From an uncultured virus (IMG/VR IMGVR_UViG_3300042249_000005) (Duplodnaviria; Heunggongvirae; Uroviricota; Caudoviricetes): 20,000 nucleotides of DNA. The position numbers and the translations under genes were made by a program. Below the pieces are notes generated by a model, which had not been told where the DNA came from, did not search any database, and saw only the letters and a program-made list of their open reading frames with translations. Each line of letters begins with the position of its first letter. Position 1 is the first letter of the stretch. Shown here in pieces: positions 1 to 17,021 of this stretch. Location: the IMG/VR virus record IMGVR_UViG_3300042249_000005, one strand, 5' to 3'.

Positions 1-321
1 GCCGCCGAAACGCCCGAGCAGCGCAGTGCCATTGCCGAGCAGTTGAAGATCCTGAATGGCAGCAACGCTGACCGCAAGGTATCCGACAACTACGTGATGG
101 TGGATCAGGTTTACACGAACGAGTACGGCCAGCCTGAAAAGGTCCGGGTAGCCATTGACCCGGCAAGCGGCCAGGTACTCGGAGGCGTCCAGCAATCACA
201 GAAATGGCCTCAGCCAACCAAGGCCAATATCGCCGCCCTGAAAAACGATCCCAAGAGCGCAGCCCAGTTTGACGCCATGTTTGGCCCCGGCGCAGCCGCC
301 CGTTATGGAGTGAGTCTCTAA
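1..321 (+). CDS. 3' part of a probable internal virion/DNA-ejection protein (truncated at window start)
   Basis: Frame is open from base 1 (AAETPEQRSAIAEQLKILNG...), so the TTG at 43 is unlikely to be the true start. Ends ...ALKNDPKSAAQFDAMFGPGAAARYGVSL. Stop TAA 319-321 overlaps the ATG of the giant gene. Product inferred from position only. Confidence 0.7.
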   Translation, partial: AAETPEQRSAIAEQLKILNGSNADRKVSDNYVMVDQVYTNEYGQPEKVRVAIDPASGQVLGGVQQSQKWPQPTKANIAALKNDPKSAAQFDAMFGPGAAARYGVSL

Positions 322-3300
322 TGTCGCAAAACCCCTTTAGTGATCCGAACTTTGGCAGTGAATTTCTGAGCGACGAAGAAAAGCAGTCGCAGGCCCAGAC
401 TCCGGCACCGGCTCAAGCTCAAACTGCCGCACAACCGACAGGCTTCAAGCCGCGCAGTACCAACCCGTACAGCGACCCCAACTATGGCGCAGAGGAAGAA
501 GGGCGCACATTTGGTGAAATTGCGAAGGATTCTGGTGCCGCTCTAATGCAAGGCTTCGCCACAATGGGGGGCGATATAGCATGGCTGGCGGACAAGGCAA
601 CCGGCGGCGTAGTAGACATTGGCTTCCAGAAAGCCGCCGACCGTGCTACCGAATACTGGCAGGACGCTAAAAGCGACAAGATGAAAGCGTCTAATCAAGC
701 ACTGGCCGAAGCCGAGGGCTTCACTGGTATCTTGAAAACAGCGTGGGACCGCCCCGAAGTGATCCCGGATATTGTGATATCCTCAGCACCTAACGCGCTA
801 CCGGTGGGTGCAATGTCTCGCGCCGCAAGAGCCGTCAAGGGCGCCAAGGCTGCAGTCGCTACAGCCATTGGTGCTGGCGGCGCACTGGAAGGCGCAAACG
901 CTGGCCGCGAGACTGAAAACAAAGTGCGCGATATGACCGCTGAAAAGCTGGCCGAAGTGTCGCCGCAGTATATGCAGTTGATCAACCAGGGTGTCAGCCA
1001 TGAAGAAGCGGCCGCTCAAGTGGCGAACCGCGCAGGCTTGACCGCCTTCGCAGTATCCGCACCGCTGGCGATGCTGGCATCCAAAGTAACTGGCGCTGGC
1101 AGACTTGAGGCTGACTTCTTCACCGGCAAGGGACTCAAAGGCTTCTTTGATACGGTACTGCGCGAGTCTGCCGAGGAGATGGCGCAGGAAGCATCCAACC
1201 CGTTTGGCTCCAACGTGGGCATCAAGACTCAGGTCAACCCGAATCAGTCGCTTGCCGAAGGCGTACCAGAAGGCGCTGCGCTGGGCTTAATTGCTGGTGC
1301 TGGTCAAGGTACCCCGATGGCGGCATTGCAGAGATTTGTGCCGCCAGCAAAGGTTCAGCCGACCCCGACCCAGGACAATCCCGATCCCGAACCTGTTGAG
1401 CGTCCCGATCCGAGCAATGGCCCGATCTCTGCCGCTGCCGCACAGATGGCGCCGGTACAGACCGCCGAAGATTTGGGTGTTCAGTTCCCAGAAGCGCAGG
1501 ATTGGAGCCAGTACGACCGCCCAGCTGTTCAGCGACAGCAGGACCGGCAGCCGCAGCGTGCCGATGATGTAGTGTCGCAGATGGTAGGTCAGGCCCGCCA
1601 GATAGGCGATGCTGACGCTGAAGTGCGCCTTGAGACTGCCAACCGTCTATACCGCACCATTGACCGGCTGATGAAGGAAGGCAACGAAGAGCAGGCTCGC
1701 TGGAATGCCTACCGTGCCGACCAGATCATCCGGGAGGTATCACCGCGACTGCCGCAGGCACAGCAGGCCGAAGGCGCACAGACAGCCGTCTCAACGCTTC
1801 CGGCATTGATCACTGATGATGGTGTCGATCTGCGCGATCTGGCCGCACAGGGGCAGGAGCGAGCCATTACCGGCGCGGCAGAAACCGCCGCCAAGAACCA
1901 GCTGATCCGCAAGACCGTGGATGACCAGACCTTTGCCATTGGCAAGGTGAACCAGCGCAGCGAGTATTACGGCAAACTGGCTGATCTGGCGCAGTCGCTG
2001 CCCAAGGGTACGCAGATGGTGGATGCAGCCACCAATGAGGCATGGAGCGTTCAGGCTAGCGAGAGCGGTGTCACACTAACAAATGACGCCACCGGCCAGA
2101 CCACTACGCTGCAGCAGAATGAAACCGGCACATGGACTCGTACTGGTGAAGTGTTGCCGCCGAGCGAGTTCAAGCTGCGCGGCAATCTGACACCAGCTGA
2201 GCAAGTTGGCACCCAGGCCCAGGGCGCAGAGCAGAAAAGAAACAGTGTGATTAAAGCAGGGCGTGATGATAAATACGGCATTGATGTGCAGATGAAGCGC
2301 GACAATGAAGGCTTTACGATCACAGAATCAGATCCGAATACTCAGGACGTTAAGATCACAAGCGGCATGGGTGGTGTGTACCGGAACGATCAAATTCTCA
2401 ACAGGGAGGGTGAGTTCGTAGATGCTCTCCAGATCGTTCAGATGGGTAATGCTACAGCAGAGCAAACACCATTCAGGGGCAGCAAAGATGAGATGAAAAA
2501 GGCTGTAGAGCTTGCTGCAGAAATAGAGTTTGCCAGAAAAACAGGGGATATGCAGAAAGTCGATTCGCTTGAATCGCAGCTTTCCGACTTGGTATCAGGC
2601 GTCAAAACCAAGCCCGCACCAGTACAGAAGAACATGATCGAGCGGGCGCTTGATCGACTGACCAGTGAAGGCGCAACAGGCCCGGAAGTAAATCAGCAGA
2701 TCGCAGAGCTTGAGCGTATCCAGCAAGGGCTTGCCAGAAGCGGCCGCACCGCCGATGAGGCGTTGGCGTATCTGGACAAGCAGGGGCGTTATGATCTGGT
2801 TCGTGCCATTGATCCAGAAGCGATCCGCCTTAGTTCGGGCAACAAACCGTTCCAGACAGAGGATAAGGCCAAAGCCTCACTCTACTTTGAGCAGAACAAG
2901 AAGTTTGCCAGCGTGGTACCGTATGGCGATGGCTTTGCCGTCCGGGTGGACAAGGCCCGCCAGAAGGAAGAGCAGCGCACTGGCCAGCAGGAAACCGCCT
3001 ATCTGCCGGACAACACCCCGATCAACACCCGGTTCGTGGTTGTGGATCTGGACGAGCTGGTGCCGTCCAATATGCCGGACGGTAAGATCAACCAGGCATA
3101 TCCTGGCGAGCTTCAGCCGCGTGACCGAACCAATGCCAACAGCATGGTTCAGGTGCGCAATATCAGCGCGAATCTCAACCCTGAGCGTCTTGGTAGCAGC
3201 CGTGATGCCAGCACCGGGGCCCCGATTGTTGGGCCTGACGGAGTGGTTGAATCCGGCAATGGCCGCACTATGGCTATTGCAGCAGCCTACCAGCAGGGCG

Positions 3301-6300
3301 GCGACCGAGCCGGTGCCTACCGCAAGTATGTGATCGAACAGGCCCGCCAACAGGGCATGGACGTTGATGCCGTATCCAGACTGAAACATCCGGTTCTGGT
3401 CCGCGAACGGATCAGCAGCATTGACCGGGCCGAGTTTGCGCGCCGGGCAAACGAAAGTCAGGTGGCTGGCATGACCGCCTATGAGCAGGCCATGTCCGAT
3501 GCTGACATGCTGAAGGCTGATGATCTCCAGCTGTGGGAACCGGACCAGTCAGGCGATCCGCTGGCGGCAAGTAACCGCGACTTCCAGCGGATTTTTGTGC
3601 GCTTGCTGGGCAACAATGAGGCAGCCAGATACACAACACGCAGCGGTCAGGCCAGCCCGGAGCTGGGTGCCCGGATGCAGCGGGCGGTGTTCGCCAAAGC
3701 GTACCGTGATGCCGATATGGTGGAAATGGTCACAGAACAGAGTGATCAAATGCGCAACCTGGTAGCCGCACTGCAAGAGGCGGCGCCTGATCTTGCGGTG
3801 GCCCGCGAGTATGGCGGACAGAATGCAGTTGCTGCTATCAGCACCATTAACGACGCGGTGCGCATTGTTCGCAAGTCCCGACAGGACGGCACCAGTGTGC
3901 ATGACCTGACACGACAGAGCGATGTGTTCAGCGAGCCAGTGCCCGAAACAACAGCCTACGTTGCAGAGCAGATCGACCTGAACATCCGCAGCCGACGGGC
4001 GCTGGCGGATGCCATGCGCTATATTGGTCATGCGGTGCGCAATGAAGCCGAGACCGCTATGAACGGCTCCCTGTTCGGGGATTCAGTAACCAACGAGGAC
4101 ATATTCGGTGCAGCGTTCAGACAAAATCAAGATAACGGTGACGGACAACAGTCACCTGAATGGGATGTTCCAGCAGGCATTCAAGAAGGCGAACAAAACC
4201 CGGCGGCAGGAGGATCGGAGCAGGAAGCAGAAGTAGAGCCCCTGCTCCAGTCCTACACCGAGGAGGAACTGGCCGAGCGTGAGCGGGAGCGCTTGGCCGA
4301 AGAGGCGCGCATTGCTGAAGAACAGCGCAAGACTGAAGAGAAGGCAGAGGCTGACGCACAGGTTGACGGCTTCACACTGTCCGGCTCTAATCGCCCGGCT
4401 GACGTTGCAGCCTCACAAGGCCAGCAGGATCTACTGGGCGGCGGCCAGGTGTCGCAGCCAGACCCAAATACCGTCAGTGAAAACTGGAAGGTTATTGGTG
4501 AAAACCTGCAGGGGCATGAAGTATCCGAAAACACTGTAACTGGTCTGCGTTCTTGGAAATCGAACAGTGGCTCAAATACCGAGCAGGGCCGAATCGAGGG
4601 TGATAACACCTACGAATCCGCAACTGATCAGGTTATTCGTAATCGCCGCGTTCAGTACAAGACTCGATCCGAGATTGAGGCCGAAAACGAGGCCGCAAAT
4701 CCGCCCAAAACGTCCGATGGCCGGGAGATTGTCGAACACACCACCAAGAAAGGCAGATTGTTGCGTGGCGTTATTGTTGAAGGCTTGAACCTCAAGCAAG
4801 CCAAGGCAATCGATCAGTACAGCTTCAAGAAAGGCAATGGCTTCTATATCAAGGTGGAGAATTGGGAGGCGCACCTTGCCGAGCAAAAACCGGAGTCCAA
4901 GCCAGAGCCGAAACCGGAGCCTAACCAGGAGACGGCCGTAGGTATCGAGCTTGATCCCGATGAGGCGCTAGGCGGTGCTACAGCGGATGGGCAGGTTACT
5001 GGCATGGCAGATAATGCGCCTGCAGCCGGTGATGATGGTAAAGCTGCCACTTTGCAAAAAATGGTTAGCAAGGGTGAAGGCGTCTTTAACCGCATGTATC
5101 AGTCATTGAAAAAAACGACTGAGACAGAGGGTGTTGATTATCTTGAATCACAAAGCACGCTTGGATTGAGTCAGCGCAAAAACCTTGAGGTATTCCTTGA
5201 TAGCCGTGGCTACTCACGCAAAACCAATCAGGCTGGCAGTACCCGCGTCAATGTAGAGGATAACAGTAACGAGCAGATTTCGATCACTTTCTCACCCGGT
5301 GGAAGTGCCGTTATGCGTGTGGCCAGGGGCACTGCGGAAGATTCGGTTGCTGTAGAGCAGGCCGAACCCGGCCAGTCTCAGCGCACCTACACCCAACAGG
5401 AGCTAAGAAACGCGCATCGCATGGCCGCTTCAGTCATGCATGGAAAGCTGAACGGGCTTAAAGCCTTACCGCTGCGACAGATAGCCAAGCCGTTTCTGGA
5501 ATCGCAAGGCGTACCTGTACCAAGAACCAAAGCGGAAACCATTGCGGCTGTTACTGATTTTGACAGGGTAAGCGCACTGGCATCCGTTGGTGTATTCAAT
5601 GTCGAGTTGAGCGACAGCGTAATGGGGCCGCTGCAGGCAGAAATGGAAGGCCGTATAGCTACGGAGCAGGCCGAGCCAGCACCTGCTGTAGATATCCGCA
5701 CCGAAGGCCGAGAGAACGCAACCGAAGCCGAGCAGGCGCAAGCCGAAAATCAGAGGCCACAGGTCAGCGAAAACACTATCTTCACCGAGGATGCCGCAGA
5801 GGAAGCACGCCGTATCCTCATGGCTTCGCTTGGCCAGGTGAACAGCGGTATCGATCCGAAAGTGATGCAAGCCGGGATCACCCTGGCTGGTTACCATATC
5901 GAGAAAGGGGCACGCACCTTTGCCGCTTACGCCAAAGCCATGACAAACGACTTGGGCGAGATGGTCAAGCCGTACCTGAAAAGCTGGTACATGGGCGTCA
6001 AGTACGACCCGCGTGCCGCAGGCTTTGATGGCATGGATGATGCTGCAACCGTGGACGCAGCGGATATAGACGCACTTCTCAGCGCACCTGCTACACTTGA
6101 AACAGAGGCCAACAGCCAAGAGGTAGGCGATGGAACAACTGAGTCCGAAATGGATCAGCCAGATCAAACTGGAGTATCAGCGACTGCAGAGGGACGAGGA
6201 GGTTTTACACAACCAAGTTCTACACAGACGGATACTCAAGACCTGGCGGGAACAGAGCCCGGCAATGTGGAGCCGACTGCGAGCGGCGAAACTGACGGAG

Positions 6301-9300
6301 GCGCTGGCGTTCGTGCTGCAACAGAGAATGTGGCAGATGACGGACGAACTGGAGGCAGCGGGGTATCCGCCAACGGACGCCCGCGAACAGGCGGAAGCCG
6401 AACACCTGATGCTGGAACCGGAAGCGGATCTGCAGCAGAGGGAGGCCGACCGACTGGAGGAAATGCAGCGCCGAAACCTGGCGTAAAAGATCCCGCATCC
6501 ACTTCACCGGCCTACACTGGGCCGGGTAACTATCACATCGACAATCCGCTTGAAGTTGTAGGCGGCGGCCAAGTGGCACGCTTCAACAAGAACAAGCAGG
6601 CTATCGAGCTGTTCAATGATATCCGCGACAACGGACGCACCGCGACCCGTGAGGAGCAGGATATTCTGGCCGGTTACACTGGCTGGGGCTCGTTCGGCCA
6701 AGAGCTTTTCCAAGGCACATGGAATAACCCGAAACCGAAAGCAGGCTGGGAAGCGCGTGATGCTTGGCTACGTGAACAGCTTGGTCAGGCGGAATGGGAA
6801 TCCATGCAACGCTCGATCACCAATGCGCACTACACTGACCCGCCCACAGTTATGGCTATGTGGGATATGGTCAAGCGCATGGGCTTTGAAGGCGGTCGCG
6901 TGCTTGAGCCCTCAATGGGTATCGGTAACTTCTACGGCATGATGCCGAGGGAGCTTAAAAACCGCAGCCAGCTATCCGGTATTGAGCTGGATATGATGAC
7001 CGGCGGCATGGCTCAGATGCTGTACCCGAATGCCAACATCAAGATCATGGGGTATCAGGAGTCAAAAACACCGGATGACTTCTATGACGTTATCATCGGC
7101 AACTGGCCGTTTGAGAACACTGCCATTGCAGATCGACGCTACAACAAGTTCAGTCCGATGCTGCATGACTACTTCTTCCTGAAAACGCTGGACCAGGTGC
7201 GACCTGGCGGTATCGTGATCGGTATCACCAGCAAGGGATCGATGGACAAGAAGGACAGCAAGATCCGCTCAGAACTGGCGAAGAAGGCCGAGCTGGTGGC
7301 GTCCTTCCGTTTGCCAAGTGGTGCGTTTGAGGAGTATGCGGGCACCAAAGTTGTGACCGATATTATCATCCTCAAGAAACGCGCAGAGCCGTTGGGAATG
7401 GCGACCAATGAGGGCTGGATTAAGTCGGTGCCATATATGACGCCGCAGGGGCAGGAAGTGTTCATCAACGAATACTACGCCAGCCACCCAGATCATGTAA
7501 TCGGCACCATCGAGTATGGCCACGGCACCACATTCAACCGCCCAGGCATGATCGTGACCCGGCCAAACAACATGGCCGAGCAGCTTCAGCGCATTGTGAA
7601 CATGGTGCCGCAGGGCGTATTTGAATCACGCCGAGTCGATAACAATGTCGCCTACATTACCAACCACACCGCCGACCGTGAGGGCTCACTTACACAACAG
7701 GACGGCAAACTGTATGTGGTGCGCGGCGAACACTTGGCCCCTGCAGAACAGGTGGTGAAGTATTCCGTCAAGTCCGAAAAGACAACCGCCGAGCGCGAGC
7801 AGCAGTTGCGGGATCTGATCGGCATACGCCAAGCCTACGCCCATCTGATTGAAGCCGAGAATGGTTTGTCAGGCAGCGACCCTGAACCGCTGCGTAAGGA
7901 GCTGCGCAAACAGTACAACGCCTTCACGAAAGCCAATGGCCCGCTGAATGAGTCCTGGGGGCTGCAGTACCTCAAACGCATTGACGACCCCTTCCGTCCC
8001 GCATTGGCGGCACTGGAGAGCGAGCGCAACGGCAAGACCGTCCCGGCTGCCATTCTTGAGCGCAGCACCATCCGCACGCCAAGGACGATTGATAATCCGA
8101 CTGTGCGTGAAGCCTTTGTATTGGCGCGAAACGAAAGCGTCAATCCAACACTGGACAAGATCGCGCAACTGTCCGGCAAGCCTGCTGAAGAAGTCAAAAC
8201 GGAGCTAATTGATTCTGGCGCCGTATTTGAACTACCAGGGGGTGATATTGTGCCGTCTGATATCTACCTGTCCGGCAATGTGCGAGAGAAGATGCGCCAG
8301 GCTGTTGCCGCGCTGGAAGAAGGAAATGCAGCGATGCAGCACAACATTGACGAGCTGCAGAAGGTGATGCCGAAGGATGTGCCTTACTTCAATATCGAAG
8401 CCCAGCTTGGCGCATCATGGGTGCCGACAGCGGTGTACGAGGAGTATGTCGCGCACATGCTGGATGCAGGCAGCACTGACGATATTCGCGTTACCTATGC
8501 TGGCGGCAAGTGGAAGGTGGACATTGCCAGCCGCCTATACCTGAACACAGCAGGCAGCACCGGCTTTGGCACGCCTCGCTACAACTTCAATAAGCTGGTA
8601 AACGCCGCCTTTGGTAACCAGACCGTGACCATTAAGGCCAAGGACCCGGACGGCAACGAGTTTGTAGACGAGGAAGGCAGCGCCGAAGTAAACGGCAAAA
8701 TCAGTGATATGCGATCCAAATTCAAGGAATGGCTGTGGCAAGACCCGGACCGTCGCCTGAATGTTGAACGCGAGTACAACGAGGTGCGAAATGCCTACGC
8801 CACGCCGCGCTTTGATGGCTCATTCCTTCGTTTTGATGGCATGGCACTGACGCTGGGTACTGGCCCGTTCAACCTACGTCAACATCAGGCGGATGCTATT
8901 TGGCGTGCGCTGGTCACGCGCCGTTCACTGAATGCGCATGAAGTCGGCACCGGCAAGACCTTTACCATGGGGGGTATTGCCATTGAATCCCGCCGCTACG
9001 GCATTGCCAAGAAGCCGCTGATTCTCGCTCATAACGCCAATAGTGCGAGCGTGGCGCACGAGATTGAGATGATGTATCCCGCCGCCAAGGTGCTGTATAT
9101 CGACAACCTTGATCCGAAATCTATTGAGCGCAAGATGCGCCAAATCGCCAACGATGATTGGGATGCCGTGGTATTGCCGCACTCACAGTTGAGCAAACTG
9201 GCATTGCGTGAAGATACCTTGATGGCGATGGCTCAGGAAGATATTGCCGATTTGGAACGCCAGGCGATTGAAGCCGCCGAGGAGGACGGGGCTGCGCTGG

Positions 9301-12300
9301 ATGTTGATATGATGGACGCCCTACTGGATGGCGATAAAACAGCCTTGAAGAAGGTGCGATCACCAACGGCCAAGGATCTGGTGAAGATGCGCAACCGCGT
9401 TATTGAAACCATCCGCAAGCAGGGACAGAAAGCCTCCAAAGCCAATGCAATCAGCTTTGAAGAGCTGGGTATTGATATGCTACTGGTGGATGAGGCGCAT
9501 GTATTCAAGAAGCCGCCCTTCGCCACCCGCATGAAGATGAAGGGATTGAACACCCAAGCCAGCGATGCGTCCATTGCGCTGAACTTCTTGGCCCGATATG
9601 TTCGCGCAAACAACAACGGCGGCAACATCCATCTGTTCACTGGCACGCCTGTGACCAATACCCTGACTGAAGTGTTCCACATGATGCGCTACATCATGAA
9701 CGAGGAAATGCAGCAGCAGGATCTGGATCAGTGGGATGGATGGTTCAACTCTTTCGCCAGTGAGGTGATGGATATCGAGCTGAACGGTGCCGGTGAATAT
9801 GAGCCGGTAACCCGACTGGCTGGATTCATCAACGTACCAGAACTGCGCAAGATGATTGGGCAGTACATGGATACGGTCTTTGCTGACGATATGCCGGAAA
9901 TGCAGCCGCGCAAAACAGCCAGCGGCAAAACCCTGTCCTCGCCGGACCTGACGGAGCTTGAACGTGCCGACCTGCTGAATGGCCGCACCGAGGGCGCCAA
10001 GGACCGACCATACAAGAAGGTGATCAACGAGTCATCGGACCTGTCACCAGAACAAATGGACGCATTCAACGAGGTCAAACGGTATGCACAAGCATTCAGG
10101 AACATGACCCCTCTTGAGCGCAAACAGGCAGCACAGAATGGCGAACCTGAAGCACCATTGATCTATGAGCGGATTGCAAATGAGGCGTCTTTTGATGTGC
10201 GTCTACTCAAGAAAGAAGAGCTTGCCGGACAGGAAGGCAAGGTTCCAGACCACCCGAACAGCAAAATTTCAAGAGCTATAAATAACATTCTGGAAATCTA
10301 CCATTCAGATGACCGCGCAACGCAAGTCGTATTTTCCGACACCGGTTTGCATAAAACCGGCAGTAGAAGCGTTGGTGAACCGGGTGAAAAACAGCAGATC
10401 ACCTTCCCGGCGTTCTCACCAATACACGATATGATCGAGCGGCTGGTGCAGGCAGGGATACCGAGAGAACAGATCGCACTCATAGCCGGGTCTAATACCA
10501 GCAAGGAGAAGCGCAAGGAGATCGCTGAAAAGATGAACCGTTCCGAGATCCGTGTTGTTCTCGGATCTACGGCTTCACTTGGTGTTGGTGTCAATATGCA
10601 GAAGAATCTTCGCGCTATGCACCACCTTGATGCTCCGTGGATGCCAGGGGATCTGGAACAGCGTAATGGCCGAGGCCACCGCCAGGGCAACCAGTGGAAC
10701 ACTGTGCTGGAATACCGCTATTTGACCGACCGAATTGACGGGCGCCGCTGGCAGGTGCTGGCAGTGAAACAGCGCTTCATTAACGCCTTCCTGAAAGCCA
10801 ACGAGGACAGTCGCATCATTGAGGGCGATGCCGCCTCTGATGATGGTTCCGATATTCTTGAATCCTTCTCTGAGGCCGCAGGTGATCCGCGCATCCTGAT
10901 TCGCAAGAAGATGGAAAGCAAACTGGAACAGATGCGACAGCGCCGCCGTTTGCACGATCAGGGGATGGTCGATGCCAAAAACCGTGTCGCTGGCCAGCGT
11001 GAAAAGCTGCGCCGCAATCAGGAGGAGGCTAAGCGTTTCGAGCAATCCGGTGCTATTGAACGCGCACAGCAGATTATTGAACGTAACGCCGGTGCCAATT
11101 TCACCATGAAGATTGGCGATCAGACCGTGACGGATCGCAAGACTGCGCAAGAGCTGATCGAGTCCTTTGTTGCTGAAAATGTGCGCATGGGGGACGCCTA
11201 CCAAGTATTCGGTGAATTCGATGGACTTCCGGTACAGATCGCACTTGAACAAAGAGCTGCGGTGCCGTACCTGAAAATGGACATCAACGGAATCGAGGTT
11301 AAGAGCAACAGCCAGAAGGTTATCACCCTGGAGAACGCGCTACGCGCCTTGCCGAAAACCTATAACGATCTGGTAGCTGAAAACGCTGAAACCGAACAGA
11401 ACATTCAGCGACTGATCCAGGTATCAAATGAGCCGTTCTCGCAAGAGAAGGAGCTGCAGCGCATGGAGCAAGACCTGGCCGCACTGGAGCAGGATATTCA
11501 GGATAACCCTGTGGCACCGCCGGTATGGCTACGCAACGGCGCACCACTGGAAACCGAGGTGCAATGGAAGGGTAAGCCGTTTGAAGTTACCGGCCACCGA
11601 TGGAACAGCGATGGATGGTTTGTACTGGCGAAGGACGCACGCGGCAGCGTAGTCATTCCGTACACTGAAGTGACCGACAACCAAGGGATGCCACTGTATG
11701 AGGAGCGAGAGTTTGAATCACCCGATGTTGTGACCAAGGATCAGGATCAGTCAGGCGATGATGCGATCATCAAGAACACGCCGCAATTCTCCCGCTCAAT
11801 CCCGCAGACCAATAAGCGCGAGCGCGAGGGCGTTGCGCTGTCGGCGGCGGGCGGGCAGGTGCCGGAGCAAAGTGGCGTGGTCCGCGTGATCTACCGGGGG
11901 ACCAACGATTCTGGCGAGCGCATCTCGGGCGGCATTGCGGAGGGCACGCTGTTCGCCGCGGCCGACGAGGCGACCGCCAGAAACTACGCCGGTACAGGCG
12001 GCAAGATTGAGCGGATTGGTGTCAAGCAAGACGCCAAGGTGCTTGTCGAGGGGACCAAGGAGTTCGCCCAAGTAACGGGCCGCAGGCGCGGCAAGCTGAT
12101 CGACACGATGCGCAAGGGTGAAAACCTCAAGACAGCGGCCGACGATGCCGCTGCCAAAGCGCGTGCTGCGGGGTACGACGCGCTTGAGTTCACATCACTC
12201 AAAGACCTCGGCATCGCGATCTTCAACGAGGACAAGTTCGTGCGCGACTATTCGCCGTCGCAGCAGCTCAACCAATCCCCCGCCTTCGACGGCCCCGAGG

Positions 12301-15300
12301 TCGGCAACACGCCCATCGGCGACGCCACCGAGATCGAGGTGGACGGCAAGCAGCGCCCGACCCGCAACAGCGCGGGCCAGCTGATCCACCCGACCGAGGA
12401 GGGCATCCGCAACTTCTTTCGGTGGTTTGGTTCGAGCCGCGTGGTGGACGAGCAGGGCCGGCCGCTGGTGGTGTATCACGGTACGGCGGAAGATTTTGAT
12501 GCCTTTCGCAATACGCCGAACGGTGCTTTCTTCTTCGATGACAAGGAGCTTGCAGAGCTATATGGCAAGCCAGTTCCGGCTTACCTCTCGCTCAAGAATC
12601 CGGCGATTGTCGATGCGCAGGGGCAATTCTGGAATGAGATGGACGCGGTGCAGTCCCCCGTGCTGGATGAGTTGCGCAAGCACGTCCCGAAACTTTTTAC
12701 CGTGGACCACATTAAGCAGGCGGCGCAAAAAGCCGGCTATGACGGCGCAATCATCCTCAACACCGTAGACAACGGAGGGGCCGGCAATCAATACATCGCC
12801 TTCCGCCCCGAACAGGTCAAGTCCGCCACCGGCAACAACGGAGCATTCGATCCTGACAATCCTGATATCCGTTTCAGTCAGGGCGAATCAGTCACCGGAA
12901 CCCCGTTGAGTGTAACGGATCTCGATACGGTCTTTAATCGGATCGCTCCCCGCCTCAAAAACGGGCAGGGTTATCGAATCTTCGAGAACGTCCGCGACCT
13001 TTTTGCGGCGTACCCGGCGATAGAGCAGCACGCACGCAAGCAGGGCAGCAACGGCAGCGATGTAGAAGGCGTATTCCATAAAGGTCAGATCCTGATTGTC
13101 CGAAACAAGGTAACCAGCCGGGCACAGGCCGAGGCGCTGATGTTCCATGAAGCCACACATGGCGGCGTGAATGCAATGATGGCGGACGAGGGTATCACCA
13201 AGGCCGCCAACCGCCTGTTCATGGCAATGGGTGGTGGCCGTGGCTTCAAGCAGCACATGGAGCGCCTGGGGCTGCAGGATAAACTGAGGCCCTATATCAA
13301 GGGATCAATGGAAACCGGCAAGGATGGCAAGCTGGTAATGACACCAGAGGAGCGCCGTGCGATGCTGGTGCATGAGCTGTTGGCCTTTACCGGCGAGAAG
13401 AACAGTAAGGGCATCAAGCAGAAAGCGCGGGAGCTGATCGGCTTTATCCGCCAGTGGTTCCGCAAGCATGGCTATCTGGCATCATCCGAATTGAGCACTG
13501 CGGAAATTTCCTACATGGTACGACAGGCACGGAAGTACACGCTGGGCGGCAAGGGTAAAGCCGGTGCGCCAAGGTTCATTGCGCCGACTATGTTCTCGCG
13601 TTCGCAGGAGTCTGGTAATGTCGATCCTTCAAATGGAGGTGATGTGGTGCATAACAACCGGACACTTACAGGAAAAGCGATCCCTATATTGGTTATCAAG
13701 GATAGTGACGCACCTATGGCAGGCATTCTTACCAATGCAGGTAACAGCCGGTTTGAGTTCAGGGTGCATCCAGCGGCTGACGCTCACGACATGATAGATA
13801 TCGCTGTAAAAGAATTTATTGGTGAGCCAAAGTACCTAAACGATGGTGAATACTACCGTTTCACGAACAGTAAAAATGAGCAGTCACTGATCAGAAGCGG
13901 AAAGTTCAAGGCATCCACTAATCACGCAGACGGCATAACTGAAGATGGTATTTCGGTTGCAGATGGACCGCACTACGGTGTTATGGGGTACAAGTATGGC
14001 TACAGGGTGACTGGTGATGTAATAGGAACCGGTGCTGACGGCGAACCTGTGATGAATCCATCCACCATGAAGTTTGGCAAGGTCAAAACAACAGAGGATA
14101 TAGAAGCCGAAGCACGCGATATTAGAAATAAATTCTTTGCTCAACGAGCTAATGATTTAGGTATTAGCGAGAATGTCCTTCGCTACTTATCTATGCCTGG
14201 AAACTTCAATTTGGACGGCGAGCTTCAAGGCAGGCAGCTTATCCGCGATAAAACTAGGTTTGAGAACGCCTATGGCGAGGCATTTGTTGATGACGGAGCG
14301 AATGCAGCCCCAATGTTCCGCCGCAGCGGTGAGTCTGATGCCGATCTATCCGTGGTAGCCAAAGCACAGCGCACACTGGGCAACAACGACCGCAACGCAT
14401 GGGACAAGGTGAAGCGCACCTTTAAGCGCAACTTCACAGCTGCAGGTCTGCTGCCTGACAGTGTGTTCCGCGAGAAGGTACTGCGTGATTCCGAGGTGAA
14501 CGCGCATGAGTTTGATACCGCGCATTATATCGGCGCCTTGGATCGTGCGATCAGCAAGGCATACGGTGCCAGCTACAACAAGCTGACCGATGCCCAGCGT
14601 GAAGCGCTGGATGCGCAGATGAAATCCACCGAGCCGGATATGTCGATCCCTGAGCCGGTACGTGTAGCGCTGATGGATATGCGCCGCTCCATTGCCGGCC
14701 TATCACAGCAGTATGCTGAAATCCTGCAGCAGCAGGTTGAGGAACTGCAGGCCCAGAGTAATGATGCTGATGCGATGGAAAATGCCATGCTGCTTGAAAC
14801 CATCATCAACAACATGGATACCTACGCCCACCGCAGTTACCGGGCGTTTGACGATCCCGATTGGCCAGCCAAGGTAAGCAAAGATCCTGAGATATTCCCG
14901 CAGGCCGTGGAATATCTGAAAAACCGCCAGATGGAGCAGGGCATGCAGGAAGCCGAAGCCGAACAGCAGGCGATCCGCATTGCGCGCACCATTCTGGAGG
15001 AAGGTACCGCATACGAAGATATGACCAGCATGATCAAGGAGAGCAAGCTGGGTGCCAAGGATCTTTCTATCCTGAAACGCCGCAAAGATATCGCGCCTGA
15101 GATCCGCGCCCTGCTGGGTGAGTACAAGGACGTGAAAATCAACTACGCCAAGACGCTTGCCAAAATGAGCCGGCTGGTGGCGAATACCAAGCTGCTTGAC
15201 CGCATCAAGGAGATCGGACTGGCTGAAGGCTGGTTGTTCACTGAGGATAACAAGCCACTGGATCAGAGTGTGACGAAGGTGGCCGGTGACGCCTCCGAAG

Positions 15301-17021
15301 TGTACGCGCCATTGAATGGCTACTACGTTCCGAATGAGATCAACCAGGCGCTGATCGACACGCTGGGCAAGGAGCAGATGGCAGACTGGCTGCGTGCAGT
15401 GATCCGTATGAATGGCCTTGTTAAATATGGAAAAACCGCCCTTAGTCCGACAACCGCGTTCCGTAACTGGATGAGTGCCGCATTCTTCGCAATGGCGAAT
15501 GGTCACTTCGATATTACCCAGATGCGCAAGTCGATCAGCGGCTTCAGTGAATACTTCGGCCACGGTGAAAACCCAGAGAAGGTTGCATACCTTCGCAAGC
15601 TGAAAGAGCTTGGCGTGGTGTACGACACCGCCTATGCCGGTGAGATGATGGATCTATTGGCTGATGCCAAAGGCGGTTGGGCTGAAAAGCTTTTTGAGAA
15701 GCCCGGGTTATCCAGCCTCAAGGCAGCAAACGGGCTGGCACAGAAGTTCTACCAGTACGGTGATGACTTCTGGAAGATCATGGGCTTTGAGAACGAGAAG
15801 GCCATGCTGATGAAGCACAAGGGAATGAGCGAGGCCGAGGCGGAAGTGGAAGCGGCAGAGCGTATCCGTAACACCTACCCGACCTACAGCATGACCGGTC
15901 GAGCTGTAAACTGGCTGCGCCGGTTCCCGCTGGCGGGTACCTTCGTATCCTTCCCGGCCGAGATCATCCGCACGCAGTTCCACATGCTGCGGTATCTCAA
16001 GCAGGATATGAAGGATTCCCCGGCCTACGCTGCCCGCAAGGTGGTGGGCCTGGCGATGGTGTCCGGTCTGGCGTATGCCGCCCAGGCATTGAGCAAGGAT
16101 CTGTTTGATATCGGGGATGATGAGGAAGAGGCGGTTCGCTTGCTGGCAGCCAGCTGGAACAGCAACTCCAACATCTGGTTCATGGGCCGGGACGAGAATG
16201 GAAGCATCCGCTATCTTGATTTCAGCTTCTTGGACCCGTACAACTACTTCAAGCGTCCGATCAACGCCGTGATGCGTGACCAGCCGCTGGACAAAGCCGC
16301 AATTCAGGCAGCCGGTGAGATGCTGTCGCCTTTCTTCGGAACGGATATCGCCTTTGGTGCGATCTCGGAAATCTGGAACAACAAGAAGGAAGGCGGGGGT
16401 CGGGTGTATAACCCGCAGGATATGGCGCTGGATCAGGCCCAGAGTATTGCCAAGCACTTGCGCAAGGCGATACAGCCCGGCTTTGTCGGCAACATGGAAC
16501 GGGCATGGATGGCGGCCAATGATCAGGTAACAGCAAGCGGCAAGCGGTATAAGGCAGAGGAGGAGTTGGCAGCCTTCTTTGGCTTCCGTGCTTCAACCTT
16601 CGACCCCAAGACTGCGCTGTACTACAACAGTTTTGAGTTCAAGGATCGCAAGCGGGATGCCACGGCTGTGCTGATGAATGTCGCCAAAGACCCGAACAGC
16701 GTCAGTGATGGCGATCTGATGAGGGCTTACGACACGGCCAGCCGGTCAAGGCTGCGTGCCTACACTGATATGATCCGTCTGGTGCAAGCAGCCAGGGCAG
16801 CTGGTATGAACAATATGCAGGTGAATGCCTCACTGCGCCGCAGTGGTATCAGTAAGGCTGATATCAGGGCGCTCATGCAGGGACGGATACCGGCATGGCG
16901 CCCCGATCAGAGCATGATGCGTAACACGATCCGCAAGGCAGAGCTTCTGTACGGACCGGACGTGGTGCGCGAAATGCGCGAGCGTGAAAGGGCTATTATT
17001 CAGCGGGGTTACAGGGAGTAA
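321..17021 (+). CDS. Giant phage large polyvalent protein (5566 aa): DarB-like MTase-helicase with ParB, ART and metallopeptidase domains; probably virion-packaged and injected
   Basis: Uninterrupted ORF, GGAG at 307-310, TAATG coupling. Catalytic motifs listed in the domain features. Ala/Gly-rich N-terminus typical of ejection proteins. Confidence 0.93.
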   Translation: MSQNPFSDPNFGSEFLSDEEKQSQAQTPAPAQAQTAAQPTGFKPRSTNPYSDPNYGAEEEGRTFGEIAKDSGAALMQGFATMGGDIAWLADKATGGVVDIGFQKAADRATEYWQDAKSDKMKASNQALAEAEGFTGILKTAWDRPEVIPDIVISSAPNALPVGAMSRAARAVKGAKAAVATAIGAGGALEGANAGRETENKVRDMTAEKLAEVSPQYMQLINQGVSHEEAAAQVANRAGLTAFAVSAPLAMLASKVTGAGRLEADFFTGKGLKGFFDTVLRESAEEMAQEASNPFGSNVGIKTQVNPNQSLAEGVPEGAALGLIAGAGQGTPMAALQRFVPPAKVQPTPTQDNPDPEPVERPDPSNGPISAAAAQMAPVQTAEDLGVQFPEAQDWSQYDRPAVQRQQDRQPQRADDVVSQMVGQARQIGDADAEVRLETANRLYRTIDRLMKEGNEEQARWNAYRADQIIREVSPRLPQAQQAEGAQTAVSTLPALITDDGVDLRDLAAQGQERAITGAAETAAKNQLIRKTVDDQTFAIGKVNQRSEYYGKLADLAQSLPKGTQMVDAATNEAWSVQASESGVTLTNDATGQTTTLQQNETGTWTRTGEVLPPSEFKLRGNLTPAEQVGTQAQGAEQKRNSVIKAGRDDKYGIDVQMKRDNEGFTITESDPNTQDVKITSGMGGVYRNDQILNREGEFVDALQIVQMGNATAEQTPFRGSKDEMKKAVELAAEIEFARKTGDMQKVDSLESQLSDLVSGVKTKPAPVQKNMIERALDRLTSEGATGPEVNQQIAELERIQQGLARSGRTADEALAYLDKQGRYDLVRAIDPEAIRLSSGNKPFQTEDKAKASLYFEQNKKFASVVPYGDGFAVRVDKARQKEEQRTGQQETAYLPDNTPINTRFVVVDLDELVPSNMPDGKINQAYPGELQPRDRTNANSMVQVRNISANLNPERLGSSRDASTGAPIVGPDGVVESGNGRTMAIAAAYQQGGDRAGAYRKYVIEQARQQGMDVDAVSRLKHPVLVRERISSIDRAEFARRANESQVAGMTAYEQAMSDADMLKADDLQLWEPDQSGDPLAASNRDFQRIFVRLLGNNEAARYTTRSGQASPELGARMQRAVFAKAYRDADMVEMVTEQSDQMRNLVAALQEAAPDLAVAREYGGQNAVAAISTINDAVRIVRKSRQDGTSVHDLTRQSDVFSEPVPETTAYVAEQIDLNIRSRRALADAMRYIGHAVRNEAETAMNGSLFGDSVTNEDIFGAAFRQNQDNGDGQQSPEWDVPAGIQEGEQNPAAGGSEQEAEVEPLLQSYTEEELAERERERLAEEARIAEEQRKTEEKAEADAQVDGFTLSGSNRPADVAASQGQQDLLGGGQVSQPDPNTVSENWKVIGENLQGHEVSENTVTGLRSWKSNSGSNTEQGRIEGDNTYESATDQVIRNRRVQYKTRSEIEAENEAANPPKTSDGREIVEHTTKKGRLLRGVIVEGLNLKQAKAIDQYSFKKGNGFYIKVENWEAHLAEQKPESKPEPKPEPNQETAVGIELDPDEALGGATADGQVTGMADNAPAAGDDGKAATLQKMVSKGEGVFNRMYQSLKKTTETEGVDYLESQSTLGLSQRKNLEVFLDSRGYSRKTNQAGSTRVNVEDNSNEQISITFSPGGSAVMRVARGTAEDSVAVEQAEPGQSQRTYTQQELRNAHRMAASVMHGKLNGLKALPLRQIAKPFLESQGVPVPRTKAETIAAVTDFDRVSALASVGVFNVELSDSVMGPLQAEMEGRIATEQAEPAPAVDIRTEGRENATEAEQAQAENQRPQVSENTIFTEDAAEEARRILMASLGQVNSGIDPKVMQAGITLAGYHIEKGARTFAAYAKAMTNDLGEMVKPYLKSWYMGVKYDPRAAGFDGMDDAATVDAADIDALLSAPATLETEANSQEVGDGTTESEMDQPDQTGVSATAEGRGGFTQPSSTQTDTQDLAGTEPGNVEPTASGETDGGAGVRAATENVADDGRTGGSGVSANGRPRTGGSRTPDAGTGSGSAAEGGRPTGGNAAPKPGVKDPASTSPAYTGPGNYHIDNPLEVVGGGQVARFNKNKQAIELFNDIRDNGRTATREEQDILAGYTGWGSFGQELFQGTWNNPKPKAGWEARDAWLREQLGQAEWESMQRSITNAHYTDPPTVMAMWDMVKRMGFEGGRVLEPSMGIGNFYGMMPRELKNRSQLSGIELDMMTGGMAQMLYPNANIKIMGYQESKTPDDFYDVIIGNWPFENTAIADRRYNKFSPMLHDYFFLKTLDQVRPGGIVIGITSKGSMDKKDSKIRSELAKKAELVASFRLPSGAFEEYAGTKVVTDIIILKKRAEPLGMATNEGWIKSVPYMTPQGQEVFINEYYASHPDHVIGTIEYGHGTTFNRPGMIVTRPNNMAEQLQRIVNMVPQGVFESRRVDNNVAYITNHTADREGSLTQQDGKLYVVRGEHLAPAEQVVKYSVKSEKTTAEREQQLRDLIGIRQAYAHLIEAENGLSGSDPEPLRKELRKQYNAFTKANGPLNESWGLQYLKRIDDPFRPALAALESERNGKTVPAAILERSTIRTPRTIDNPTVREAFVLARNESVNPTLDKIAQLSGKPAEEVKTELIDSGAVFELPGGDIVPSDIYLSGNVREKMRQAVAALEEGNAAMQHNIDELQKVMPKDVPYFNIEAQLGASWVPTAVYEEYVAHMLDAGSTDDIRVTYAGGKWKVDIASRLYLNTAGSTGFGTPRYNFNKLVNAAFGNQTVTIKAKDPDGNEFVDEEGSAEVNGKISDMRSKFKEWLWQDPDRRLNVEREYNEVRNAYATPRFDGSFLRFDGMALTLGTGPFNLRQHQADAIWRALVTRRSLNAHEVGTGKTFTMGGIAIESRRYGIAKKPLILAHNANSASVAHEIEMMYPAAKVLYIDNLDPKSIERKMRQIANDDWDAVVLPHSQLSKLALREDTLMAMAQEDIADLERQAIEAAEEDGAALDVDMMDALLDGDKTALKKVRSPTAKDLVKMRNRVIETIRKQGQKASKANAISFEELGIDMLLVDEAHVFKKPPFATRMKMKGLNTQASDASIALNFLARYVRANNNGGNIHLFTGTPVTNTLTEVFHMMRYIMNEEMQQQDLDQWDGWFNSFASEVMDIELNGAGEYEPVTRLAGFINVPELRKMIGQYMDTVFADDMPEMQPRKTASGKTLSSPDLTELERADLLNGRTEGAKDRPYKKVINESSDLSPEQMDAFNEVKRYAQAFRNMTPLERKQAAQNGEPEAPLIYERIANEASFDVRLLKKEELAGQEGKVPDHPNSKISRAINNILEIYHSDDRATQVVFSDTGLHKTGSRSVGEPGEKQQITFPAFSPIHDMIERLVQAGIPREQIALIAGSNTSKEKRKEIAEKMNRSEIRVVLGSTASLGVGVNMQKNLRAMHHLDAPWMPGDLEQRNGRGHRQGNQWNTVLEYRYLTDRIDGRRWQVLAVKQRFINAFLKANEDSRIIEGDAASDDGSDILESFSEAAGDPRILIRKKMESKLEQMRQRRRLHDQGMVDAKNRVAGQREKLRRNQEEAKRFEQSGAIERAQQIIERNAGANFTMKIGDQTVTDRKTAQELIESFVAENVRMGDAYQVFGEFDGLPVQIALEQRAAVPYLKMDINGIEVKSNSQKVITLENALRALPKTYNDLVAENAETEQNIQRLIQVSNEPFSQEKELQRMEQDLAALEQDIQDNPVAPPVWLRNGAPLETEVQWKGKPFEVTGHRWNSDGWFVLAKDARGSVVIPYTEVTDNQGMPLYEEREFESPDVVTKDQDQSGDDAIIKNTPQFSRSIPQTNKREREGVALSAAGGQVPEQSGVVRVIYRGTNDSGERISGGIAEGTLFAAADEATARNYAGTGGKIERIGVKQDAKVLVEGTKEFAQVTGRRRGKLIDTMRKGENLKTAADDAAAKARAAGYDALEFTSLKDLGIAIFNEDKFVRDYSPSQQLNQSPAFDGPEVGNTPIGDATEIEVDGKQRPTRNSAGQLIHPTEEGIRNFFRWFGSSRVVDEQGRPLVVYHGTAEDFDAFRNTPNGAFFFDDKELAELYGKPVPAYLSLKNPAIVDAQGQFWNEMDAVQSPVLDELRKHVPKLFTVDHIKQAAQKAGYDGAIILNTVDNGGAGNQYIAFRPEQVKSATGNNGAFDPDNPDIRFSQGESVTGTPLSVTDLDTVFNRIAPRLKNGQGYRIFENVRDLFAAYPAIEQHARKQGSNGSDVEGVFHKGQILIVRNKVTSRAQAEALMFHEATHGGVNAMMADEGITKAANRLFMAMGGGRGFKQHMERLGLQDKLRPYIKGSMETGKDGKLVMTPEERRAMLVHELLAFTGEKNSKGIKQKARELIGFIRQWFRKHGYLASSELSTAEISYMVRQARKYTLGGKGKAGAPRFIAPTMFSRSQESGNVDPSNGGDVVHNNRTLTGKAIPILVIKDSDAPMAGILTNAGNSRFEFRVHPAADAHDMIDIAVKEFIGEPKYLNDGEYYRFTNSKNEQSLIRSGKFKASTNHADGITEDGISVADGPHYGVMGYKYGYRVTGDVIGTGADGEPVMNPSTMKFGKVKTTEDIEAEARDIRNKFFAQRANDLGISENVLRYLSMPGNFNLDGELQGRQLIRDKTRFENAYGEAFVDDGANAAPMFRRSGESDADLSVVAKAQRTLGNNDRNAWDKVKRTFKRNFTAAGLLPDSVFREKVLRDSEVNAHEFDTAHYIGALDRAISKAYGASYNKLTDAQREALDAQMKSTEPDMSIPEPVRVALMDMRRSIAGLSQQYAEILQQQVEELQAQSNDADAMENAMLLETIINNMDTYAHRSYRAFDDPDWPAKVSKDPEIFPQAVEYLKNRQMEQGMQEAEAEQQAIRIARTILEEGTAYEDMTSMIKESKLGAKDLSILKRRKDIAPEIRALLGEYKDVKINYAKTLAKMSRLVANTKLLDRIKEIGLAEGWLFTEDNKPLDQSVTKVAGDASEVYAPLNGYYVPNEINQALIDTLGKEQMADWLRAVIRMNGLVKYGKTALSPTTAFRNWMSAAFFAMANGHFDITQMRKSISGFSEYFGHGENPEKVAYLRKLKELGVVYDTAYAGEMMDLLADAKGGWAEKLFEKPGLSSLKAANGLAQKFYQYGDDFWKIMGFENEKAMLMKHKGMSEAEAEVEAAERIRNTYPTYSMTGRAVNWLRRFPLAGTFVSFPAEIIRTQFHMLRYLKQDMKDSPAYAARKVVGLAMVSGLAYAAQALSKDLFDIGDDEEEAVRLLAASWNSNSNIWFMGRDENGSIRYLDFSFLDPYNYFKRPINAVMRDQPLDKAAIQAAGEMLSPFFGTDIAFGAISEIWNNKKEGGGRVYNPQDMALDQAQSIAKHLRKAIQPGFVGNMERAWMAANDQVTASGKRYKAEEELAAFFGFRASTFDPKTALYYNSFEFKDRKRDATAVLMNVAKDPNSVSDGDLMRAYDTASRSRLRAYTDMIRLVQAARAAGMNNMQVNASLRRSGISKADIRALMQGRIPAWRPDQSMMRNTIRKAELLYGPDVVREMRERERAIIQRGYRE
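330..488 (+). repeat. Duplicated N-terminal peptide motif NP[FY]SDPN[FY]G (330..356 and 462..488)
   Basis: Translation gives NPFSDPNFG and NPYSDPNYG separated by a Gln/Ala/Pro-rich spacer; synonymous codons differ between copies. Confidence 0.85.
2991..3480 (+). other. DdrB-like ParB/sulfiredoxin-fold domain in the giant protein (helical extension to about 4120)
   Basis: Motifs FVVVDLDELVPS, LQPRDR (3111-3128), GAPIVGPDGVVESGNGRT (to about 3269), PVLVRER and FARRANES. Boundaries approximate. Confidence 0.8.
6130..6486 (+). CDS. Nested overprinted gene in the +1 frame of the giant ORF; 118-aa helical protein with weak resemblance to TnpV-like proteins
   Basis: SD AAGAGGT at 6118-6124, 5 nt before ATG. 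Gene-like codons (mostly CTG for Leu; GAA/GAG, CAG, GCG). Globular-looking helical sequence, while the giant frame here is a G/T/S/P/R-rich linker. Confidence 0.75.
   Translation: MEQLSPKWISQIKLEYQRLQRDEEVLHNQVLHRRILKTWREQSPAMWSRLRAAKLTEALAFVLQQRMWQMTDELEAAGYPPTDAREQAEAEHLMLEPEADLQQREADRLEEMQRRNLA
6528..7385 (+). other. DarB-like N6-adenine DNA methyltransferase domain
   Basis: YTGWG, NAHYTDP, SAM-binding motif I VLEPSMGIGNF (about 6900-6932), GIELD, motif IV IIGNWPF (7092-7112), FRLPSGAF, TDIIILKKR. Confidence 0.9.
8870..10800 (+). other. SF2 (SNF2-like/DarB-type) helicase/ATPase domain
   Basis: LRQHQ Q-motif, Walker A HEVGTGKT (8937-8960), DEAH (9489-9500), motif III TGTP, motif V LGVGVNMQ, motif VI EQRNGRGHRQGN (about 10656-10691). 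Confidence 0.93.
11880..12245 (+). other. ADP-ribosyltransferase-fold module A (divergent ART-PolyVal-like)
   Basis: IYRGT (11889-11903), GTLFAAADEATARNYA, ARAAGYDALEF, IAIFN; same layout as module B. Confidence 0.6.
12280..12872 (+). other. ADP-ribosyltransferase module B (ART-PolyVal-like)
   Basis: NFFRWFGSSRVVDEQGRPLVVYHGT (YHGT 12474-12485), GAFFFD, YLSLKNP, GYDG (12735-12746), QYIAFRPEQVKSATGNNGAFD. Confidence 0.82.
12900..13545 (+). other. Zincin-like HExxH metallopeptidase domain
   Basis: VEGVFHKGQILIV beta strands, then HEATH (13146-13160) and a candidate third ligand Glu in VHELLA (13374-13376). Confidence 0.75.
13830..14070 (+). other. Candidate R-S-E clade ADP-ribosyltransferase module D in a lower-GC insert
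   Basis: YYRFT (R 13857), GISV (S 13953), GADGEP (E 14043) occur in the expected order. Confidence 0.5.
14330..17018 (+). other. Large helical C-terminal region, LPD38-like/internal virion protein-like
   Basis: AAERIRNTYPTYS...LRRFPLAGTFVSFPAE, hydrophobic KVVGLAMVSGLAYAA, YLDFSFLDPY; typical terminus of phage polyvalent ejection proteins. Family name tentative. Confidence 0.5.

Follow-up and report, generated by a model that had tools for sequence, protein, structure and literature searches.

Within the giant DarB-like gene of an uncultured tailed phage (Caudoviricetes; IMG/VR record IMGVR_UViG_3300042249_000005) lies a second gene, encoding 118 amino acids (aa) in the +1 frame directly upstream of the region for the adenine methyltransferase (MTase) of the giant. 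The window, meaning the whole 20,000-nt stretch of DNA that was analyzed, belongs to a 45.9-kb viral fragment. The small frame is conserved across divergent relatives. By a narrow balance of probability, the small protein is expressed separately and regulates the injected methylase-helicase, probably as an inhibitor, a reading that draws on structural models. The features that carry this account are as follows.

6130..6486, + strand: nested 118-aa gene in the +1 frame of the giant; product all-helical, net acidic and TnpV-like, the predicted partner of the MTase-SNF2 module
6118..6124, + strand: Shine-Dalgarno (SD) sequence AAGAGGT, 5-nt spacer to the ATG at 6130
321..17021, + strand: giant polyvalent DarB-like gene, 5,566 aa, matching phrog_10089 (DarB-like antirestriction)
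6129..6488, + strand: giant-frame linker over the nested gene, aa 1937-2056; G/T/S/P/R-rich, poorly conserved and stop-free
6489..7589, + strand: N6-adenine MTase module, with an NWPF motif near 7098-7112

The nested gene and its conservation

The nested open reading frame (ORF) runs from an ATG at 6130 to a TAA ending at 6486 and encodes 118 aa, four of them Trp. An in-frame TAG stands two codons 5' of the ATG, and the +1 open frame begins at 6127. The SD of the nested ORF has a pairing energy of -7.1 kcal/mol, and an SD-like site of ≤ -5.3 kcal/mol precedes the start in 25 of 27 aligned homologs, all energies being computed against the anti-SD sequence without a background control. The small frame has a GC content of 0.70/0.37/0.71 at the three codon positions, a pattern typical of the whole giant (0.62/0.42/0.63); the giant frame over the overlap has 0.71/0.70/0.37, and the normal pattern is absent there. 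Giant aa 1937-2056 consist to 57.5% of G, T, S, P and R (30.3% giant-wide), and of 545 windows of 120 aa sampled from the giant, none undercuts this peptide in hydrophobic fraction. An earlier note, made from the sequence alone, had proposed a real +1 ORF with its own SD and four Trp, a normal codon pattern in the small frame, a G/T/S/P/R-rich linker in the giant frame and selection acting on the +1 frame. These proposals agree with the values above and with the comparisons below, in which the +1 ORF and its SD recur in homologous giants; the position that it gave as the start, 6118, is that of the SD, and the true start codon is the ATG at 6130.

Three further + strand out-of-frame ORFs of at least 100 aa lie within the giant (2710-3333, 6616-6942 and 12427-12768), and the length of the nested ORF alone is therefore not beyond chance. 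The reality of the gene rests on conservation, not on length. A word-indexed search with the small protein gave 4 homologs among 16 candidates, and a profile search gave 200 relatives at E ≤ 0.001 among 50%-identity representatives. All 22 viral loci found via the small protein (44-98% identity) are nested in the +1 frame, with the small ORF just 5' of the MTase inside an open frame of >2,900 codons, and all nine viral loci found via distant family members are nested likewise (one record shared with the 22).

A further sample of 160 loci was fetched by MTase alignment only, as the best 80 of 336 viral and the best 80 of 417 metagenomic matches, and is biased toward closer relatives. Profiles seeded from nested proteins (three iterated) were run over its 10,884 open segments on both strands. 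A +1-nested match was found in 136 of these loci (70 viral, 66 metagenomic), corresponding to 88/105 clusters at 90% and 42/53 at 70% MTase identity, and four more carry the small gene in the +1 frame of the leading part of a giant that is split. No small-protein match fell in the +2 frame, on the antisense strand or in frame with the MTase in any of these segments. Several of the remaining 20 loci end short upstream; in each of seven viral loci of the 20 that were read by eye, an SD-like start opens a +1 ORF directly 5' of the MTase that has the look of a diverged member. A divergent +1-nested subfamily with a different core motif was seen at L133:4510-4827, L138:4708-4989 and L141:4222-4860, the last of these loci carrying two divergent +1 ORFs in tandem.

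For amino-acid identity, the 27 aligned loci give 0.50 in the small frame against 0.34 in the overlapping stretch of the giant frame, and the MTase reaches 0.71. In 350 of the 351 pairs (not independent of one another) the small frame is the more conserved. A synonymous T creating a stop in the giant frame is found at 0/605 sites in the overlap as against 154/1,333 elsewhere. Since stop-making T is avoided and identity is higher in the small frame, both frames are constrained: they stay open across divergent relatives as dual coding demands, the small frame being the conserved one over the overlap and the giant frame a linker kept open. A pN/pS above 1 in the giant frame was read as a by-product of constraint on the other frame and not as selection on the giant. 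Ordinary 1- or 4-nt stop-start overlaps are not supported as the source of the constant +1 frame, as the stand-alone Acaryochloris gene and one Bacteroidota gene overlap the MTase gene in the other frame.

A chance shadow ORF in a GC-rich linker would agree with the frequency of out-of-frame ORFs of such length in the giant and with the lack of a Pfam or PHROG family for the small proteins at cut-off. It is refuted by the nesting counts, by W, P, L, A, G and D residues that stay invariant at 30-55% identity as the giant frame drifts, and by bona fide TnpV in the same frame of integrative and conjugative elements (ICEs; see below). The fold is also predicted with confidence (AlphaFold2: all-helical, no strand, pLDDT 92.8, pTM 0.80), and we give a chance origin almost no credence. 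Sequence searches of Pfam, PHROG and PDB with the small family gave nothing at cut-off, and a SurA_N match (18 bits vs. a cut-off of 30.8) was treated as chance.

All eight cultured-phage records examined have a +1 ORF with an SD 5' of the MTase. The nested ORFs of USP_18, Mwe-JY07, PEp14, VvAW1, Atu_ph08, Itty13 and LASTA match at local E ≤ 1e-8 and that of Bcep22 at 0.002, the Bcep22 form recurring in 41 Burkholderia and Ralstonia phage records. None of the eight records annotates the nested ORF, as had been anticipated for standard gene callers. In the Itty13 record (NC_070969, L043) three hypothetical genes are annotated opposite the DarB-like frame, and the giant is not listed in the stretch shown. 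Of 11 bacterial-genome loci, seven are nested within an intact giant, three of these repeating viral records. The overlapping giant frame is decayed in bacterial copies of the small gene at L060:7001-7378, L063:1093-1494 and L065:6977; the small ORF is intact in two of these, and one lies beside a type I restriction-like gene (by eye).

In phage PBC5 (NC_003324; L046:9458-9809) one base is missing relative to Atu_ph08, about 50 nt 5' of the nested start. This splits the giant, gp22 ending in the small protein and the annotated start of gp21 lying past the MTase, possibly through an error in the record that PHROG 938 has inherited. The top BFVD match, Q8W6J4, presumably the PBC5 protein (which fits the PBC5 data here), and phrog_938 were both read as this fused record rather than as a new domain. 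A Psychrobacter locus (L059:6173-7297) and representatives P0011, P0060 and P0101 also have the small protein fused in frame to an upstream giant domain, in Psychrobacter the helical domain that precedes the nested gene. Such fusions, with that of PBC5, are what would be expected if the +1 ORF were the tail of a programmed-frameshift product, joining the N-terminal half of the giant to the small domain, and not a separate protein. We regard this as very improbable: the +1 frame is closed two codons 5' of the ATG in the window and within ≤6 codons in 7/27 loci, SD-like sites stand before nearly all starts, the one missing base of PBC5 leaves the MTase half without a start, and the Psychrobacter genome gave no MTase match. 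The gene after the Psychrobacter fusion has the look of a MotA/ZorA-kind membrane protein (by eye).

Relation to TnpV and DUF1896 and the direction of overprinting

Judged by profile scores, the small protein is TnpV-like via intermediate families and not a TnpV member. Neither the window protein nor 150 relatives matched TnpV (PF14198), the gathering score of 27 bits not being reached, and a search of the genome for TnpV gave no match, nor did its control. The small-family profile matches PEp14-type nested proteins at local E ~1e-8, and those match TnpV at E 4e-4 to 0.015, below the cut-off. The window-family profile also matches an above-cut-off Acaryochloris TnpV (hhalign 75%; E 5e-5), and one phage nested ORF scores 34 bits against TnpV, phage nested proteins ranging from below to above the cut-off. 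Direct profile-profile comparison with ICE TnpV gave a probability of 0.6% over 18 columns at the W..P motif, from a TnpV alignment of 12 rows. In the Atlas the best match (0.89) is unnamed, and a TnpV cluster reached 0.79 with 11% of members. The likeness to TnpV previously seen by eye thus stands as a remote one, through intermediates.

In gut ICE-like loci all eight nested ORFs tested are full-strength TnpV (E 1e-35 to 1e-45), placed in the same +1 frame inside an SNF2/MTase gene, and TnpV-like nested genes were also found in Anaerococcus, S. agalactiae and Aerococcus elements. On an Acaryochloris plasmid TnpV stands alone just upstream of the MTase-SNF2 gene. TnpV and the phage protein share a size of about 110 aa and the +1 position, whereas the nested phage gene lies ~0.4 kb 5' of the MTase as opposed to 1-4 kb in ICEs, and the literature found treats TnpV as a transposon or excision gene (Tn4451/Tn4453). 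According to PMC9815147, integrative and mobilisable elements (IMEs) inserted in snf2 carry tnpV. Here, eight loci (L096, L159, L164, L174, L190, L193, L196 and L210) have a second, stand-alone TnpV after a truncated snf2, the snf2 frame being short in all eight (964-1,327 aa from the MTase vs. ~1,630). The break has the 11-nt (inverted) repeat described for IMEs in three of them, and an ORF of ~715 codons lies between in four. These copies tie TnpV, whatever its function, to snf2 in a second way.

DUF1896 (PF08989) was found in 4/201 sampled genomes of one phylum (Bacteroidota), in 4/4 loci directly upstream of an MTase-SNF2 gene. It resembles the phage protein in being small, helical and so placed, and differs in standing alone and in its length of ~145 aa with an extra C-terminal part. 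No sequence or profile match joins the two, with faint cross-matches only (E 0.029; 0.003-0.018 locally). The top fold match among 48,161 is 2APL (PG0816), which we take to be a DUF1896 structure (Z 5.2, rmsd 3.4, 67 aligned), the Z score lying within the chance range for helical proteins. Foldseek against the PDB gave no match at E 0.001.

The analogy to P1 Ulx drawn in the earlier note has no basis in sequence: hhalign gave a probability of 0.3% (single Ulx sequence), and P1 DarB (L045:10469-16000, L233), which starts directly at the MTase module, has no detected nested or upstream homolog. Ulx, too, is a small protein encoded beside a DarB-like gene and functionally linked to it (PMC9024508), but ulx is downstream and separate.

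These comparisons suggest that the small gene is ancestral and that the giant linker was overprinted on it, because a stable fold and stand-alone upstream homologs beside minimal MTase-SNF2 genes (Acaryochloris TnpV, Bacteroidota DUF1896) contrast with a drifting linker. The earlier description of the gene as overprinted inside the giant, if taken to mean a new gene, finds no support in the same observations. An old two-gene cassette, a small TnpV-like gene and then an adenine MTase-SNF2 helicase, would have come first, with the nested form as its phage version. N-terminal delivery modules, virion-type in phages and ArdC-like (by eye) in ICEs, would have been joined to the enzyme via a second frame opened across the small gene, which the giant would read as a floppy linker. 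Synonymous changes are enough to open such a frame, provided that no T stands before AA, AG or GA, and the absence of stop-making T from the overlap shows just this. Rz1 of phage lambda, nested in Rz, is a known embedded phage gene that likewise lies wholly in another frame of its partner's gene. Unlike Rz1, the embedded gene here appears older than its host frame, which is a linker of a 5,566-aa protein, and the nesting spans phages and Firmicute conjugative elements. The nesting is not described in the literature searched, whose coverage leaves out most subscription journals and the original Bcep22 and Tn4451 papers.

Expression, predicted binding and role of the small protein

Three features bear on how the small protein may be made and where it may act.

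6089..6097, + strand: candidate internal promoter, extended -10 TGcTACACT, hexamer 38 nt 5' of the ATG; no good -35
7737..8000, + strand: docking site for the small protein predicted by the model only, giant aa 2473-2484 and 2549-2560, between MTase and SNF2
8946..10688, + strand: SNF2-like helicase (Walker A to Helicase_C)

One metatranscriptome held part of the region (share 0.09). A 611-nt contig from this RNA library (6118-6728) begins at the SD and takes in the entire nested ORF; of its 14 differences four lie within the overlap, and three of those change the small protein. The other piece covers 8604-8809, and the uncovered rest proves nothing. The contig is a weak hint of separate expression. 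It drew attention to TGcTACACT upstream, which follows the extended -10 motif pattern; a consensus promoter scan found nothing at 5600-6600. The motif occurs 26-71 nt 5' of the start in 17/80 loci, whereas other parts of these genes predict 1.2. Shuffles of codons, of bases and of synonymous codons gave 1.9-2.7 loci with the motif and reached 17 in 0/1,000 trials each, and the antisense strand gave 3. Judging from these motif counts, the nested gene probably has its own internal promoter.

The small protein was modeled with giant aa 2057-2930 using paired 71-row alignments. The complex scored 0.61 (runs 0.61, 0.57 and 0.63), the best of three controls 0.00, and the mark that it passes is reached by 116/157 solved complexes and 2/215 mismatched pairs, counts that hold only roughly here, as our own alignments were used. 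The runs share at least 54% of contacts, with a partner pLDDT of at least 73, and a sequence search found no solved DarB-like relative. Residues 23-30, 68, 71 and 81 of the small protein are predicted to contact giant aa 2473-2484 and 2549-2560. The model supports binding just past the MTase, between MTase and helicase, and the dedicated partner of the MTase-helicase proposed earlier is probable to this extent, as a prediction. In favor of this site, insertions and deletions at the interface are matched: among the 71 rows both main contact segments are present in 51 and neither in 15, with 5 discordant. The 15 rows may represent one event, and by their gaps the docking site differs in the PEp14-type group. 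Two other measures were set aside: inter-protein mutual information, whose top pairs were conserved-column noise (mean at contacts z 1.0, from the same alignments as the model), and the identity correlation between the small protein and the MTase half (0.85), which follows from linkage.

Translation of the small protein would thus start from an SD of its own, and transcription probably from a dedicated internal promoter; the protein would bind the enzyme on the segment between MTase and helicase and would restrain it. As a separate chain it could be left behind when the giant is packaged and injected, so that the enzyme would be kept off in a lysogen or producing cell and would become free once it enters a new host cell. 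The same conservation and the same complex evidence fit equally well a positive partner (chaperone, packaging factor or activating subunit), as Ulx is for P1 DarB. The predicted site lies away from the MTase active site, and PMC9024508 lists Ulx as "Aids DarB localization". For Bcep22-like phages, PMC9144972 identified no homologs of Ulx, DdrA, DdrB or Hdf, so that a hidden helper would have a place there. A restraining role is favored because the small protein is never fused to the MTase in the 160 loci, as a needed subunit could be, though giants fuse many domains. It is favored also because the family follows the enzyme through phages and conjugative elements despite different delivery routes, and because the small gene may be expressed apart from the late operon, whereas a late packaging helper would need no promoter of its own. 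With no similarity to Ulx either, a positive partner seems somewhat unlikely.

It is improbable that the small protein is a DNA-binding factor for mobility or regulation (excisionase-like or transcriptional) and no more than a passenger of the helicase gene. TnpV of Tn4451 has been postulated to aid excision from its homology to lambda Xis (PMC3158075), TnpV is carried by mobilisable elements (PMC9815147), and the small protein has weak fold matches to TetR-family helical domains. On the other hand, its model is all-helical without a strand, it is net negatively charged in 67/71 homologs, its place inside the MTase-SNF2 gene is fixed and distant from the integrase, and the complex model passes.

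Several observations weigh against a regulator that restrains the enzyme. Inhibition itself is inferred only, no confident contact falls on the catalytic NWPF motif, and the complex model covered the MTase side of the enzyme. PEp14-type proteins lack residues 23-30, the main contact segment, and the modeled interface is therefore not universal. Nor is the partner, since no homolog was detected beside the MTase in P1 or in a Campylobacter, a Ti and a Chryseobacterium plasmid (none in 3/7 plasmid loci examined). The extended -10 motif is lacking in 63/80 loci, and the promoter test was post hoc, after the RNA contig had been seen, on loci that are related and not independent. The RNA evidence is one contig from one study that gives no start, strand or level and may be DNA. 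Direct profile comparisons with TnpV and DUF1896 are not significant, and 4/11 bacterial-genome loci are remnants or a fusion, with no adjoining MTase and no intact giant.

The giant gene, its phage and wider meaning

The remaining features place the nested gene in its phage.

3009..3410, + strand: DdrB-like ParB domain of the giant (PF18763, E 1e-35)
5754..6020, + strand: conserved helical domain of the giant, often 5' of the nested gene in phages; a few records show in-frame fusions of it with the small protein
12447..12848, + strand: ART-PolyVal domain of the giant (PF18760, E 3e-22)
17488..18702, - strand: tyrosine integrase, temperate phage context

The giant matches a DarB-like PHROG on both sides of the overlap and has an adenine MTase followed by an SNF2 helicase in one giant multidomain protein, as in DarB-like polyvalent proteins. 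With its DdrB-ParB and ART-PolyVal domains it resembles the DarB-type polyvalent and Bcep22-type giants; cultured-phage records differ in annotating the giant alone over the nested-gene spot. The methylase-helicase dyad of polyvalent proteins is described in PMC5512222 (Iyer et al. 2017), and a term search there found neither "TnpV" nor "overlap". A DarB-like giant is a virion protein in phage JC1 (PMC9144972). The phage fragment encodes an integrase, a repressor, an anti-repressor and RecET-like and lambda O/P-like proteins and is therefore that of a temperate phage. The composition of the giant shifts after the helicase (11560-13300), GC being 0.62-0.64 at 11601-12400 and 0.47-0.49 at 13601-14400, and the stretch past the helicase, with the ART-PolyVal domain, is probably a patchwork of exchanged modules.

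A broader proposal, which taken whole we consider quite unlikely, is that TnpV, DUF1896 and the hidden phage family form one superfamily of antidotes to delivered DarB-type methylase-helicases, with their own promoter inside the giant late gene. Lysogens and ICE carriers would then make the antidote continuously, keeping their own enzyme off and disarming the enzyme injected by related elements, which would be exposed to host restriction. Mobilisable elements that break snf2 would carry a second TnpV acting in trans on the enzyme of their helper.

Some phages devote one fifth of their genome to a DarB-like giant, and such giants are also common in conjugative elements; the hidden partner, with its fixed place, is a direct candidate for their control. 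Bcep22-like phages have been reported to be without the P1 helper proteins. TnpV, a common family of mobile elements for which the literature found gives no tested function, gains a testable job. The nested gene is also a deep case of one gene lying within another, shared between phages of proteobacteria and ICEs of Firmicutes and overlooked in every record examined. Virion proteomics done so far would have been blind to a protein absent from the search database, and the existing data can be searched again.

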